DNA from: Escherichia coli 042
GTDB lineage: Bacteria > Pseudomonadota > Gammaproteobacteria > Enterobacterales > Enterobacteriaceae
NCBI RefSeq assembly: GCF_000027125.1
Contig: NC_017626.1
Strand: one strand, 5' to 3'
DNA: 64,000 nucleotides
In this document: one piece after another, positions 26,525 to 30,343 of the stretch
Layout: every line of letters begins with the position of its first letter
Position numbering within the stretch: the stretch's first letter is position 1
Made by a program: the position numbers and the translations under genes
Notes under the pieces: model-generated
The model's input: the letters and a program-made list of their open reading frames with translations, nothing else
What the model was told of the DNA's origin: nothing
Database searches by the model: none

Positions 26525-27298
26525 TCAGAATTTCCAGGTCAGATGGGCTGCAAGTTGCAGACCGTTATAATCATCGGTTGGGGTGTCGTACCACACTTTA
26601 CCTGCCGTCAGCCCGAGATTAAGTTGCTCAGTCAGCGGTTGAATACGTTGCAGACTGACGCTCTTCATGCTGCCGTAGCGTGTTTCTGGCGTCCAGTCAT
26701 AGGTGTAAGCACCTGTTCCGCGGCTTAGCCATAGTTGCGTATAACCAGTGCCGCGCGGGTCATTCAGACGCACGGAAATCATATTGCTGTAACTACCACC
26801 TGCATCGCTGGAGTCATAATGGGTATAGCGATAGCTGGTGATCACCGGGCCAGTATAGAGGGATACGCCGCCTTGCCAGGCATCGACTTCGACATCATCG
26901 TAATATTTAGTGTAGCGATAACCGGTCGTGAAAAGCGTTTTTGGCAACAGTGCCAGGTTAATATCCTGACGAAAATCCTGGCGGGCAAAGACCGGCGTAT
27001 TATCCGCAAAGGCAATACCCGTTCGGGTTGTCAGCCAGTTATTCCATTTATACCAGACCGCACCCTGACCGCGAGTGGCATTGAAATGTTCAGTTTCATA
27101 ATCACGACGCCCCTGGGAAAGATTAAAAAGCAGCGTTGCGTTTTCAACTTTCGCCACCAGTTCAGCATACGCTAAATTACGGTTGCCATGATCGCCAGAA
27201 TAATCGGTAAAATCGTAGCCCGCGGTAATGGAAGTTAACCCGGCATAAGCGGGCAATGTGCTAAAAATTGCTGCCGCTAATAACGTCCGTTTTATCAT
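26525..27298 (-). CDS. yaiO: Outer membrane beta-barrel protein YaiO
   Basis: 257-aa ORF with signal peptide MIKRTLLAAAIFSTLPAYA, alternating aromatic/hydrophobic strands, C-terminal aromatic ...HLTWKF. Confidence 0.88.
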   Translation of the reverse strand: MIKRTLLAAAIFSTLPAYAGLTSITAGYDFTDYSGDHGNRNLAYAELVAKVENATLLFNLSQGRRDYETEHFNATRGQGAVWYKWNNWLTTRTGIAFADNTPVFARQDFRQDINLALLPKTLFTTGYRYTKYYDDVEVDAWQGGVSLYTGPVITSYRYTHYDSSDAGGSYSNMISVRLNDPRGTGYTQLWLSRGTGAYTYDWTPETRYGSMKSVSLQRIQPLTEQLNLGLTAGKVWYDTPTDDYNGLQLAAHLTWKF

Positions 27299-27299
27299 T

Positions 27300-28010
27300 T
27301 TAATCTCCTGTACGGATAAGTTCTTGTCGGAGTGAATAAGTTCCGGTAGGTAAATTACGTTCTACAATCACGCGCGGGCCAAGTTGCGTGTTCGGGGAAA
27401 TAATTCGCCCAGGCAAAATAATAACTTGTACACCAAGGCGTGAACGCTGCCCGATATAACAACCTAATTTATCGCATTCGGTAGCGATAATTCCCTCTGG
27501 AGTTCGAACAGATACGGGCTGTTGATCCAGACGATGATTACTGGTACGTACTTGTGCGCCCAAATATGTCTGGTTTGCAACTACCGAGTCGGCGATAAAG
27601 CATTGCGGACCAATCGTTGCTTCCGCTTCAATAACCGCATTTTTAATTTCGGTGGCAAAACCAATTTTTACGCCATTGCTGATTATTGTGCCAGGACGAA
27701 TAAACGCATAATTACCTATCAGGCAGTTTGCGCCAATCACTACCGGACCCTGAATAACGGCACCGTGACAAATACGGGTATTCGCGCCGATAACAACTTC
27801 ACCTGCAGTTTCATCAATAATTACCTGGTCTGCAATCTGAATATTTTTCTCTTTAACATTAAGCTTCAGAAAGTTTTTCAGTTCCTGTGACAGAAGGTTG
27901 GGAATAAGCGGTTGACGCTTCCACCAGTGCGGAATAGCGGGTGGGTTTGTCGCGCTGAGGTTCGCGTCCAGTAAAAAAGGCAATAAGTCCATAAATAATC
28001 CAGATGGCAT
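27300..28010 (-). CDS. yaiX: Hexapeptide-repeat (left-handed beta-helix) acyltransferase; start uncertain
   Basis: Repeated [LIV]-G-x-x-x-x hexads (VIGANTRI, VIGANCLIGN, IGPQCFIA); the ORF overlaps the yaiP 3' end by about 150 bp. Confidence 0.75.
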   Translation of the reverse strand: MPSGLFMDLLPFLLDANLSATNPPAIPHWWKRQPLIPNLLSQELKNFLKLNVKEKNIQIADQVIIDETAGEVVIGANTRICHGAVIQGPVVIGANCLIGNYAFIRPGTIISNGVKIGFATEIKNAVIEAEATIGPQCFIADSVVANQTYLGAQVRTSNHRLDQQPVSVRTPEGIIATECDKLGCYIGQRSRLGVQVIILPGRIISPNTQLGPRVIVERNLPTGTYSLRQELIRTGD

Positions 28011-29055
28011 AAGCTAATAATACATACACAACGGAAAGCGGTGCTAAAGGCACCAACAACCAGCAACGATGAAACCAGGCGCTAAAAGCACCAATAACAC
28101 AAACTACGCCGACCCAGATAAGCGGAAACATTGCCAACACCACACCATGCGGCCCGGTGGTAATGAATTCATTAAACCAGGTAGTGAGATAAATCCCAAC
28201 GCCATAAAGCACAACCAACAGCATAGGAAATATACTGAAGATACCGAAGCGGCTAAATAAAAGTCTTTTATGCAGGCGCATACAGACCGCGTAGCCCACA
28301 ATCCAACGCCGCCAGCGACGCCACTCCTCACGCGGGCTGTTGCATTCCTGTGGGTATACGATGCAGCGATTCGCCTGCCGAATACGGTAGCCGTTTGCCA
28401 CCAATGTCCAGGTGAGATCAAGGTCTTCGACTTTAGTACGATCCGAGAAACCGAACTTACGCAATACATCAGTACGGAACATCCCGCAGGCACCGCTGAT
28501 AATAAACGGTGCGCCGCCCACGAGCTGCTGTAGCGTGCGCTTCATAACAATCATCGGCAACTTTACGGTCGCGCGGATGTGTGGTAACAGACCCGCGCCT
28601 TTCAACGCAGTAGAGGGAATGCCGCCTACGGCATCGGCACCGCGCTCAATTTCTGCCAGCATATAGCCCATTCCGTCTTGATCGGGCGGAACATAGGTGT
28701 CGGCATCACTTAAAAAAACCTGGTCGCAGGTGGCGTAATTGAGGCCATTCATCAGCGCACCACCTTTACCGGTATTTTTTTGCGTGACGGCAACAAAGCG
28801 GTCGCCCCATTTGCGTTTGACTTCCTCCATGACCGATTCGGTATTGTCCGTGGAGCCGTCGTTTACGCAAATTACCCGGCAAAAATAAGGGTTACGCAGC
28901 AGATTATCCAGTGACTGTGCCAGACACGGGCCTTCGTTATAAGCAGGTATAATGGCGTCAATACAGCCTTTCTTTTGACTGGGTTTACGTTTTAGCGTAC
29001 TTAAAAACCATAGCAACATTGCTATGGACATACAGATAAATATCCAGGTTTTCAT
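27859..29055 (-). CDS. yaiP: Family-2 glycosyltransferase with integral membrane domain
   Basis: 398 aa; N-terminal TM helix, GT-A core (CVNDGSTD, SDAD, RWRRW), then several C-terminal TM helices. Confidence 0.85.
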   Translation of the reverse strand: MKTWIFICMSIAMLLWFLSTLKRKPSQKKGCIDAIIPAYNEGPCLAQSLDNLLRNPYFCRVICVNDGSTDNTESVMEEVKRKWGDRFVAVTQKNTGKGGALMNGLNYATCDQVFLSDADTYVPPDQDGMGYMLAEIERGADAVGGIPSTALKGAGLLPHIRATVKLPMIVMKRTLQQLVGGAPFIISGACGMFRTDVLRKFGFSDRTKVEDLDLTWTLVANGYRIRQANRCIVYPQECNSPREEWRRWRRWIVGYAVCMRLHKRLLFSRFGIFSIFPMLLVVLYGVGIYLTTWFNEFITTGPHGVVLAMFPLIWVGVVCVIGAFSAWFHRCWLLVPLAPLSVVYVLLAYAIWIIYGLIAFFTGREPQRDKPTRYSALVEASTAYSQPSVTGTEKLSEA

Positions 29056-29064
29056 GCAATTTGC

Positions 29065-29736
29065 TCAAAGAATCATTTTATGAATTACAAAGCCTTCACC
29101 CAGATCGCTATTGACCTGTTGCCCGCGAAATTGTGCAACTGCACGCAGGCGATCCGGGCGCATATAATCACGATGGCCCTGGCTCTTATGCTGTTTTAAT
29201 GCAGCCAGTTTAATGGTGAAATATTCTTCTTCCACGGATTCAAAAACCTGTGGCATAAATGAAAGCCAGGTACTTGGCGTTTCATAGCCGAGAATTTGCG
29301 GAATAGCGCGACAGGCAACCATTGAGGCTTGATAGACTGCAAGATGATCCTGATGGCGGTCAGCATCATGCATGGTGTATACACGAATGATTTCTACATC
29401 AGACGGAATTTGTTTTTTAAGGACATCTTCCAGAGCGGAAATCATATCATTAAGTTGTAAATGAGTACGGGTGTCAGCAAAATTAAAATGAATAGTTTGT
29501 TGACACCCCAAAATGTTTAATGCTTCGAGTGATTCTTGATGTCGATTAATTATTTCACTCACGCCGGAATTACCCGATGTCATCACTACCGCTGCAATAT
29601 AGAACCCTTTTTTTGCAAGACGAGCGAGCGACGCGCCACAGCCCAATTCTATATCGTCAGGATGTGCGCCAATAGCAAGGATACCCTTTCTTTTATTTGC
29701 CGAAGAAAGGATGGCTGAATCTAAAACCTTATCCAC
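29065..29736 (-). CDS. yaiS: LmbE/PIG-L-like N-acetylglucosaminyl deacetylase
   Basis: ORF with AHPDDIELGCG motif near the N-terminus and a later HxDH motif; AT-rich coding sequence. Confidence 0.8.
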   Translation of the reverse strand: MDKVLDSAILSSANKRKGILAIGAHPDDIELGCGASLARLAKKGFYIAAVVMTSGNSGVSEIINRHQESLEALNILGCQQTIHFNFADTRTHLQLNDMISALEDVLKKQIPSDVEIIRVYTMHDADRHQDHLAVYQASMVACRAIPQILGYETPSTWLSFMPQVFESVEEEYFTIKLAALKQHKSQGHRDYMRPDRLRAVAQFRGQQVNSDLGEGFVIHKMIL

Positions 29737-30343
29737 TTAATGACACTCCATTTTATTTATTATACTACAAGCACAACGATGCCCACAGAGACGTAATCTC
29801 TGGCGCAGACAGATGCTAATATTTAAGTGTTAAAAATTGCTGATAGCTGAAAAATAAGGGGCTTTCAGGTACGTGGATACGACTGCGTAATCTTTTATGT
29901 AGTTCATATGTTAAGTGTTTGTGTGTTTGGTTTGTATAGTTATTTTGTTTTATATATTGTATTTAGATGTGATTTAGTTTGTCAATTAATTACATATTAA
30001 AAATATGTTCTATGCACGAATATGGATTATATACATTATGTGAATATATTATGTGGTTGATTGAGAATGATACAGTTATATATGCAATGTGAATATAATG
30101 GTTTCATTATATGTATTGCTGTTAATAAAATAAAAGACATTATAATCTGCTTGTTTATGCATTAATAAAATGAAGTGCAGTAACTTACTGAATTGTCAGA
30201 GTGGGTGTAATTGCATATTTAATCTTTCCTTTGCCGCTTTTTTGCTAAGAATAAAATCATCTGTGCGATAACGACTAATTCTTTTAATGAATGTTTTTAT
30301 TCCTGAATACTGCTCCTATAACAAGACAGGGGAGCAGACAATC

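Follow-up and report, generated by a model that had tools for sequence, protein, structure and literature searches.

The genes yaiP and yaiX of Escherichia coli 042 lie on the minus strand within a stretch of 64,000 nucleotides (nt) of contig NC_017626.1 (the window, in which positions count from the first letter and a codon given by one position is named by its first base), and they most likely form a genuine long same-strand overlap, of a kind that is rare in bacteria. The comparisons set out below suggest that YaiX is probably translated from the ATG at 27992 as a protein of 230 amino acids (aa), with 134 nt (27859-27992) being read in two frames. An earlier note, made from the letters of the window and its open reading frames (ORFs), had described an out-of-frame overlap of about 150 bp at this junction, and this is confirmed: the two ORFs share 27859-28010 (152 nt), with the yaiX frame lying at +1 relative to yaiP on the same strand. 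A true overlap was one of three explanations that it offered, and this one is upheld, with the difference that yaiX probably starts at ATG 27992 (134 nt) rather than at ATG 28010. Both of the overlapping ORFs are bona fide protein genes with homologues, these being Pfam family-2 glycosyltransferase (GT2) for YaiP and Pfam Hexapep/left-handed beta-helix (LbH) for YaiX, a search with the 236-aa ORF of the latter having matched 525 homologues. The features of the junction are as follows.

27859-29055, minus strand: yaiP, 398 aa, GT2, with stop codon TAA at 27861-27859 (ORF and RefSeq).
27300-28010, minus strand: ORF in the yaiX frame, 236 aa from ATG 28010 (ORF list).
28008-28010, minus strand: first ATG of the open frame, Met1 of the 236-aa ORF.
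27300-27992, minus strand: yaiX coding sequence as proposed here, 230 aa from ATG 27992, an LbH acetyltransferase resembling the C-terminal domain of GlmU (GlmU-C) and ST0452.
27859-27992, minus strand: probable true overlap, 134 nt, yaiP in frame 0 and yaiX in frame +1.
27966-27992, minus strand: block constrained in both frames, ATG GAC TTA TTG CCT TTT TTA CTG GAC.
27927-27965, minus strand: linker of the yaiX N-terminal extension, 13 codons, reading ANLSATNPPAIPH in the yaiX frame and REPQRDKPTRYSA in the yaiP frame.
27927-27939, minus strand: vestige of the ancestral initiation region, from alignment with non-enteric loci.
27921-27926, minus strand: TGG TGG, the conserved Trp-Trp of YaiX, Val-Val in the yaiP frame near the ancestral C-terminus of YaiP.
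27916-27918, minus strand: position of the ancestral yaiP stop, GCG in the window and TGA in all seven non-enteric loci.
27862-27915, minus strand: C-terminal extension of yaiP, its last 18 codons, specific to enterics (C-terminal alignment of 19 loci).
27879-27881, minus strand: yaiX start CTG in RefSeq models made by the Prokaryotic Genome Annotation Pipeline (PGAP), 193-aa model with a 23-nt overlap, judged too far downstream.

The translation of the 236-aa ORF has methionine at residues 1 (ATG 28010) and 7 (ATG 27992) only. The earlier note had stated that after the yaiP stop no ATG is found in the yaiX frame until well into the beta-helix; there is indeed none after the stop, and the statement was too cautious, as no in-frame ATG occurs anywhere downstream of 27992. 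The remaining canonical starts of the frame are TTG 27983, within the overlap, and GTG 27740, within the region encoding the beta-helix. Of all the candidates from 28010 to 27824, none has a better Shine-Dalgarno (SD) pairing than ATG 27992 (UGGA, -3.1 kcal/mol), and none lies in less structured surroundings (-3.9 kcal/mol). The block 27966-27992 that begins with it encodes residues 1-9 of YaiX (MDLLPFLLD) and, in the other frame, the YaiP residues YGLIAFFTG.

The origin of this arrangement can be read from a comparison of junction DNA between seven non-enteric loci (Pseudomonas viridiflava, Acinetobacter, Sphingomonas and several metagenome-assembled genomes) and 17 enteric-type sequences from 13 lineages (E. 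coli alleles, E. whittamii, Citrobacter, Superficieibacter, Salmonella, Enterobacter and metagenomic contigs). In the non-enteric loci YaiP ends with ...RDKP(T/E/K)RYxxVVx followed by its stop codon (7/7), and the yaiX start is an ATG or GTG positioned immediately 5′ of TGG TGG (7/7), which gives an overlap of 14 nt (ATGTGGTGGnnTGA). The SD sequence of yaiX is here the Arg codon of the yaiP motif (ACGAGGTAC), being AGG in six of these loci and AGA in one, with a duplex of about -7 kcal/mol (-7.2) in four of the seven and of -2.9 to -5.4 kcal/mol in the other three. The codon choice of yaiP at the Arg of KPTRY is, in these organisms, dictated by the ribosome-binding site of the next gene.

Every enteric-type sequence has CGN at this Arg codon, by which the SD sequence is lost, and the codon before Trp-Trp is not a start in most of them, including the window. 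All 17 possess an ATG lying 63, 66 or 69 nt upstream of Trp-Trp with the frame open from there to Trp-Trp, and this ATG is built from Tyr/His-Gly codons of yaiP (TAT or CAT, then GGA). ATG 28010, on the other hand, is confined to Escherichia (E. coli and E. whittamii) and a single locus of Citrobacter cronae, most enteric lineages having TAC-NCN there. Within the vestige of the old initiation region in the window, CGC 27937-27939 occupies the place of the SD-forming AGG/AGA codon of the non-enterics and CAC 27927-27929 that of their ATG/GTG start, while ATT 27933-27935, 9 nt before Trp-Trp, aligns with the ATG of an Enterobacter locus. A conserved non-overlapping start in homologues, which the earlier note had named as an argument against the overlap, has its nearest counterpart in the distant non-enterics only, where there is a 14-nt overlap; in the enterics both this start and its SD sequence have been lost.

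The end of yaiP has also moved. Relative to Trp-Trp its stop lies at +8 in all seven non-enteric loci and at +14 to +80 in the enteric-type sequences, in which yaiP runs 2 to 24 codons beyond the ancestral stop with a tail that is variable in length and sequence. This gives the enterics overlaps of 83-149 nt (134 nt in E. coli), and protein lengths are 222-233 aa for YaiX and 373-403 aa for YaiP, against about 206 aa and about 378-385 aa respectively in the non-enterics. In six enteric lineages the yaiP stop sits at the same aligned position with different codons (TAA, TGA, TAG), the corresponding yaiX codons being (L/I)-(N/D/S/E), which may stem from selection for a certain YaiP tail length or just from the constraint on yaiX. 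The length-versus-orthologue rule of a 2008 survey of overlaps would class yaiP-yaiX as extended at both the 5′ and the 3′ side. As far as the aligned sequences tell, both extensions are lineage-wide rather than errors, and one of them is under selection.

That selection acts on the new YaiX N-terminus is indicated by the synonymous sites of yaiP. With yaiX at +1, the third position of each yaiP codon is also the second of a yaiX codon, and any synonymous change there affects yaiX too, so that if the extension is translated and important, synonymous sites of yaiP should freeze there. The measure used was the codon identity of yaiP at positions where two lineages share the same degenerate amino acid, among the 13 enteric lineages. 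It is 0.37-0.42 in the four 10-codon bins upstream of the ATG, 0.82 over the nine codons from the ATG-bearing codon, and 0.45 over the following ten codons (linker). In an analysis of the full gene with nine lineages, the segment from the ATG to Trp-Trp reaches 0.62, and none of 333 control windows across yaiP is as high (mean 0.387, maximum 0.495). The freeze switches on exactly at the Tyr codon: upstream Leu, Ala and Tyr codons vary freely, and from TAT GGA onwards seven lineages share GGA, ATT, GCC, TTT, TTT, ACT and GGA. The seven non-enteric loci show no rise at the same columns (0.35) and have 0.98 at their own SD sequence, start and Trp-Trp.

Protein identity between pairs of the seven lineages follows the same division. 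Over the first nine codons (MDLLPFLLD / YGLIAFFTG) it is 0.88 for yaiX and 0.88 for yaiP, over the 13-codon linker 0.36 and 0.82, and from Trp-Trp to the yaiP stop 0.51 and 0.30 respectively. Constraint is thus dual at the new start, then falls on yaiP (the TGREPxRDKPTRY motif), and then on yaiX while the tail of YaiP drifts. When the yaiP segment of each lineage was recoded synonymously with that lineage's codon usage, an ATG plus an open +1 frame was obtained with a probability of 0.17-0.64 per lineage, and the product over nine lineages is about 1e-4 (about 0.002 for the open frame alone), a product that treats the lineages as independent, which is reasonable because synonymous sites elsewhere are near saturation and only approximate because the enteric lineages are related. 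That a second frame should remain open over about 50 codons is unremarkable by itself; the comparative signal exceeds chance.

The protein itself points to an N-terminus that includes Trp-Trp. YaiX matches Pfam Hexapep/LbH (PF00132, 5.7e-18). Its distant homologues (about 50% identity, mostly 204-206 aa) begin with M-W-W or V-W-W, which aligns with W29-W30 of the window ORF, and the enteric homologues begin with M(D/E)LLPFLL(D/E). The Trp-Trp pair (W23 and W24 of the 230-aa protein) is at least 90% conserved in an alignment of 67 sequences. The (M/V)WW start persists in two Candidate Phyla Radiation (CPR) loci (L015 and L016), neither of which has a yaiP ORF that ends close to it, the gene upstream of yaiX in L016 being a PIG-L deacetylase; Trp-Trp therefore belongs to YaiX itself and is no by-product of yaiP. 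An AlphaFold2 (AF2) model of the 230-aa YaiX has a mean predicted local distance difference test (pLDDT) score of 87.7. Residues 21-40, with Trp-Trp and short helices, score 81-88, regular short strands with scores above 90 extend across residues 58-220, and residues 1-18 are below 50. Starts downstream of 27926, namely the CTGs and the GTG, would thus delete a conserved and structured N-terminus. The closest solved folds are ST0452 (E-value 3e-13, 32% identity over 186 columns) and the acetyltransferase domains of GlmU, with LpxD also matched. On its modelled fold and its neighbourhood (GT2, PIG-L deacetylase and outer-membrane barrel), YaiX would be an LbH hexapeptide acyltransferase.

With regard to the window allele, YaiX has Glu at about 27477-27479 (minus strand), codon 178 of 236 or 172 of 230 (IIATECDKLGC). 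Gly (IIATGCDKLGC) is found at this residue 172 in at least 90% of the 67 homologues and in the other E. coli alleles compared, and judging from this conservation the change at a near-invariant position might impair the YaiX of this strain. There are further changes of Gln for Glu in ...RLD(E/Q)QPV and of Thr for Ala in ANQ(A/T)YLG.

The overlap is not peculiar to one strain. Of 5,426 complete E. coli genomes, 4,830 carry the 191-nt overlap stretch, which has 99% identity or more in 3,715 records and is more uniform than the surrounding 1.85-kb region, for which most records are 95-99% identical. About 11% of complete E. coli genomes do not have the stretch, and the four-gene cluster to which yaiP and yaiX belong is intact in about 89%. 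The window differs from E. coli BEC1-S17-ESBL-09 (NZ_AP022298.1) at a single position in 4,851, and no variant within 27910-28030 was found among nine other sampled E. coli genomes. In K-12, IS2 splits yaiX after codon 94, with the ATG and the overlap retained. The suggestion of the earlier note that a strain-specific indel or a sequencing frameshift had lengthened one of the ORFs is rejected on this distribution, and the same junction architecture in Citrobacter, Salmonella, Enterobacter and Superficieibacter also counts against such an indel.

Public gene models vary at this point. RefSeq/PGAP use neither ATG: in the near-identical genome the start is CTG 27881 (193 aa, 23-nt overlap), and in other strains it is CTG 27893 (197 aa) or GTG at codon 63 (174 aa, no overlap). 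Two loci with identical DNA over the stretch (L003 and L030) have different annotated yaiX starts. The 193-aa model of the window allele is carried on at least 1000 contigs and the exact 230-aa allele from ATG 27992 on 102 contigs (from other gene callers and in some NCBI records), while no instance of the 236-aa model occurs among about 15 billion predicted proteins.

The placing of the start by RefSeq/PGAP amounts to a different explanation, in which the first codon of yaiX is non-canonical and lies close to the yaiP stop or beyond it, the overlap is 23-35 nt or none, and the upstream frame is open by accident. In its favour are the PGAP models themselves, the AGGAA directly before CTG 27881, and the finding that long co-directional overlaps are mostly mis-annotations (PMC2478687). 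However, AGGA is just 1 nt from this CTG, and the SD duplexes at the CTG and GTG starts are -1.9 kcal/mol or worse; three different starts are annotated in E. coli, two of them for identical DNA; CTG 27881 is CAG in strain STEC17-183; and codon 63, GTG in some other strains, is GTA in the window. Only two non-canonical starts are confirmed for E. coli, both AUU, and initiation at CUG, as at AUU, is 1-2% of that at AUG (bioRxiv 10.1101/063800). Since such a start also removes the conserved and confidently modelled Trp-Trp region and leaves the synonymous constraint beginning at the ATG unexplained, it is quite unlikely, and so is the internal non-ATG start that the earlier note had considered. 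A start at the vestigial ATT 27935 (Ile26), giving about 211 aa and a 77-nt overlap, would retain Trp-Trp, with the conserved block upstream acting as an element of the mRNA (a U-rich standby site or enhancer). An ATT, ATA, ATG or TTG is found 6-12 nt before Trp-Trp in all enteric loci, PGAP starts the Enterobacter and Superficieibacter homologues at such proximal ATGs (MLPWW, MPPRWW), the K-12 pseudogene feature begins at the same ATT, and AUU is a proven start codon of E. coli infC and pcnB (bioRxiv 10.1101/063800). Yet ATT 27935 has no SD-like sequence (+0.4 kcal/mol) and the most structured context of all candidates (-17.5 kcal/mol), and an Ile or Met is equally expected there as a hydrophobic residue within the protein. 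Neither the retention of ATG and open frame in 17/17 sequences nor the onset of constraint exactly at the ATG is explained, and RNAalifold found no conserved RNA structure among nine lineages (-1.0 kcal/mol, 4 pairs, no covariation) that could account for the frozen synonymous sites. This start is unlikely.

ATG 28010, from which YaiX would have 236 aa and the overlap 152 nt, is the first ATG after the in-frame stop and is shared by E. coli, E. whittamii and Citrobacter cronae. As it is missing from most enteric lineages, synonymous variation is free between 28010 and 27992, SD pairing is absent (+0.9 kcal/mol) and no public gene model uses it, unlike the 230-aa sequence, its use is very unlikely. 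It is highly improbable that the overlap has no translational meaning in E. coli, with the cluster decaying, yaiX a relic, and the ATG and frame merely surviving. The splitting of K-12 yaiX by IS2, the nonsense codon in yaiS, the Glu at a near-invariant Gly in the window and the roughly one tenth of genomes that do not have the stretch would all fit with decay, but they are set against the intact cluster and uniform stretch in the large majority of complete genomes, a constraint signal that comes from 13 diverged lineages and not from E. coli alone, and the reported effect of yaiX repair in K-12, which gives yaiP-dependent clumping (PMC3531124, citing a meeting abstract). Finally, a programmed +1 ribosomal frameshift that fuses YaiP to YaiX would make a separate start unneeded, and the position of yaiX in the +1 frame of yaiP with both frames open over 152 nt is what it calls for. 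This is scarcely conceivable, as relatives have two separate genes with their own SD sequence and start, a conserved ATG with constraint setting in exactly there is unexpected for a shift site, and no fused homologue of about 600 aa was seen among the best 120 of the 525 hits. A search for Rfam families and frameshift elements gave only a chance-level match to rne5 (12.7 bits against a threshold of 180), and the lack of conserved structure in the RNAalifold result counts against a frameshift as well.

Translation from ATG 27992 thus remains the favoured reading, and several points weigh against it, among them the shorter RefSeq models of yaiX and the relatedness of the enteric lineages mentioned above. 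Some enteric loci also have an ATG without an SD sequence 6-12 nt before Trp-Trp, where E. coli has the ATT, and a minor second yaiX start at this vestigial proximal position is possible. ATG 27992 has a weak SD-like sequence and is situated within a translated ORF. The linker is weakly conserved in the yaiX frame (0.36), residues 1-18 are disordered in the AF2 model, and conservation in the yaiX frame stems in part from the yaiP motif TGREPxRDKPTRY, which is itself strongly conserved. The literature yielded no ribosome-profiling or N-terminal proteomic data on the yaiX start. The main text of a Ribo-RET preprint mentions neither yaiP nor yaiX.

The junction goes back to an ancestral state, which the non-enteric loci retain, in which yaiX began ATG/GTG-TGG-TGG, its SD sequence was the AGG codon of ...KPTRY in yaiP, and yaiP stopped 14 nt into yaiX. 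In the enterics the proximal start and its SD sequence were lost (AGG to CGC, and in E. coli ATG to CAC), and so was the yaiP stop (TGA to GCG), the tail thus gained being variable, weakly conserved and, in E. coli, 18 codons long. Under translation from ATG 27992, initiation would have shifted 66 nt upstream to the ATG within TAT GGA of yaiP, adding 22 residues to YaiX, and purifying selection would now act on both frames of the first nine new codons. The site at ATG 27992 would be held unfolded by ribosomes translating yaiP, and from its weak UGGA SD-like sequence and A/U-rich unstructured setting inside a translated gene, the output of YaiX is probably low. There is about an even chance that the 22-residue extension, chiefly its first nine residues, is a de novo peptide, overprinted on the sequence for YaiP's last membrane helix and juxtamembrane motif and now maintained by selection in both frames. 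More speculatively, M(D/E)LLPFLL(D/E) on its flexible linker may dock the soluble acetyltransferase to the membrane synthase YaiP.

No description of the yaiP-yaiX overlap was found in the literature on yaiX and yaiP. In the survey of Palleja et al. (2008), no real co-directional overlap longer than 60 bp was found among 715 cases, the longest real one being holD-rimI at 32-56 bp (PMC2478687). Like yaiP-yaiX, holD-rimI is a same-strand, out-of-frame, partial overlap of unrelated protein genes, conserved among enteric genera, differing in length between them and validated by conservation of both protein ends. The yaiP-yaiX overlap differs in that it is 83-149 bp long (134 bp in E. coli), beyond the 60-bp threshold, and in that its ancestral 14-nt state and both displacement events can be reconstructed. 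Fonseca, Harris and Posada (2013) describe overlaps as arising by disruption and replacement of start or stop codons (PMC3887535), and yaiP-yaiX matches this model with 3′ elongation by stop loss and 5′ elongation by replacement of the start inside the upstream gene. It goes beyond the model in combining both routes at one junction, in having a length in the tail that is modelled as selected against, and in the later onset of selection on both frames over part of the new sequence.

Out-of-frame internal genes are known from comS in srfAB of Bacillus subtilis, rpmH in rnpA of Thermus and gndA in gnd of E. coli (bioRxiv 10.1101/520783). Like these, yaiX has an internal out-of-frame ATG of a translated gene with a distinct protein product; they are nested or very short, whereas only the first 44 of the 230 codons of yaiX overlap and the remainder is an ordinary downstream cistron. 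YaiX shares the LbH fold with GlmU and ST0452, but is a stand-alone protein of about 230 aa without a nucleotidyltransferase domain, and no counterpart of its N-terminal Trp-Trp helical cap or of the 22-residue enteric extension was identified. A 2026 paper links overexpression of a K-12 yaiX fragment (71 aa) to drug resistance and virulence (PMC13058169); it is silent on yaiP, the start codon, the overlap and IS2, and its 71-aa protein could not be mapped to a start codon in the K-12 fragment.

The neighbourhood is that of E. coli frmRA-yaiO-yaiX-yaiP-yaiS/tauA, with every yai gene on the minus strand, and syntenic yaiS-yaiP-yaiX-yaiO loci are present across many genera. In addition to yaiP and yaiX, the following features were noted.

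29065-29736, minus strand: yaiS, PIG-L family de-N-acetylase, 223 aa, full length, at the head of the cluster (ORF and Pfam).
26525-27298, minus strand: yaiO, YaiO outer-membrane beta-barrel (ORF and Pfam).
29956-29985, minus strand: sigma-70-like promoter match, TTGACA-18-TACAAT, 11/12, about 220 nt upstream of yaiS (consensus match only).

YaiP is a family-2 glycosyltransferase with C-terminal membrane helices (Pfam Glycos_transf_2, PF00535, 7e-28). The gene yaiO begins with an ATG 1 nt past the end of yaiX, and its SD-like sequence is strong (-7.4 kcal/mol). The match at 29956-29985 is the sole sigma-70-like one within 27200-30300 (3.1 kb), where shuffled sequences have a mean of 8.4 matches, and it is a candidate promoter of a yaiS-yaiP-yaiX-yaiO operon on the basis of its consensus; the same scan found no internal promoter in the conserved block or the overlap. 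There is also a hairpin that resembles a terminator and has a weak T tail (TGGTGCCTTTAGCACCG CTTTCCGTTG) at 28039-28055 (minus strand), inside yaiP and about 45 nt upstream of ATG 27992, which is probably due to chance as the number of such matches in the region equals that expected from shuffling. With a deacetylase, a GT2 synthase, a GlmU-C-like acetyltransferase and an outer-membrane barrel, the cluster resembles a system for making a surface polysaccharide by the synthase-dependent route. According to EcoGene 3.0, which cites a meeting abstract, K-12 with a repaired yaiX shows clumping that depends on yaiP (PMC3531124).

The K-12 YaiS has 185 aa owing to a CAG-to-TAG nonsense codon, and the K-12 cluster thus has two damaged genes (yaiS and yaiX). 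The C-terminus of YaiS in the window aligns with the ...EGFV(I/V)HKMIL of homologues from Salmonella, Enterobacter and Citrobacter. In the RefSeq record NZ_AP022298.1, yaiS is called a pseudogene 'missing C-terminus' and a small antisense ORF (ykiC or hypothetical protein) is called over its 3′ end, both of which look like annotation artefacts. Some E. coli genomes carry several copies of the cluster, at up to eight places per genome, with 31 places located on plasmids, and a divergent allele of about 95% identity sits elsewhere on the chromosome beside IS66 remnants (records NZ_CP147611.1 and NZ_CP147563.1). The multiple copies, the plasmid locations and this IS66-adjacent allele suggest that the yaiSPXO cluster is mobile.

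For E. coli, the dominant RefSeq yaiX models of 193, 197 and 174 aa from CTG or GTG are probably truncated. A 230-aa gene model already exists in public records, and the finding opens no new field and settles no long-standing question. In practice, cloning, repair or deletion of yaiX should use the 230-aa frame from 27992, and a clean deletion of the yaiP 3′ end would also remove the start of yaiX, and vice versa. If the N-terminal peptide of YaiX is indeed overprinted on yaiP, this same-strand overlap would have more than double the length of any that the 2008 survey took to be real. The ancestral 14-nt state with its SD sequence in an Arg codon, both displacement events and the hand-over of constraint between the two frames are all legible in extant sequences.

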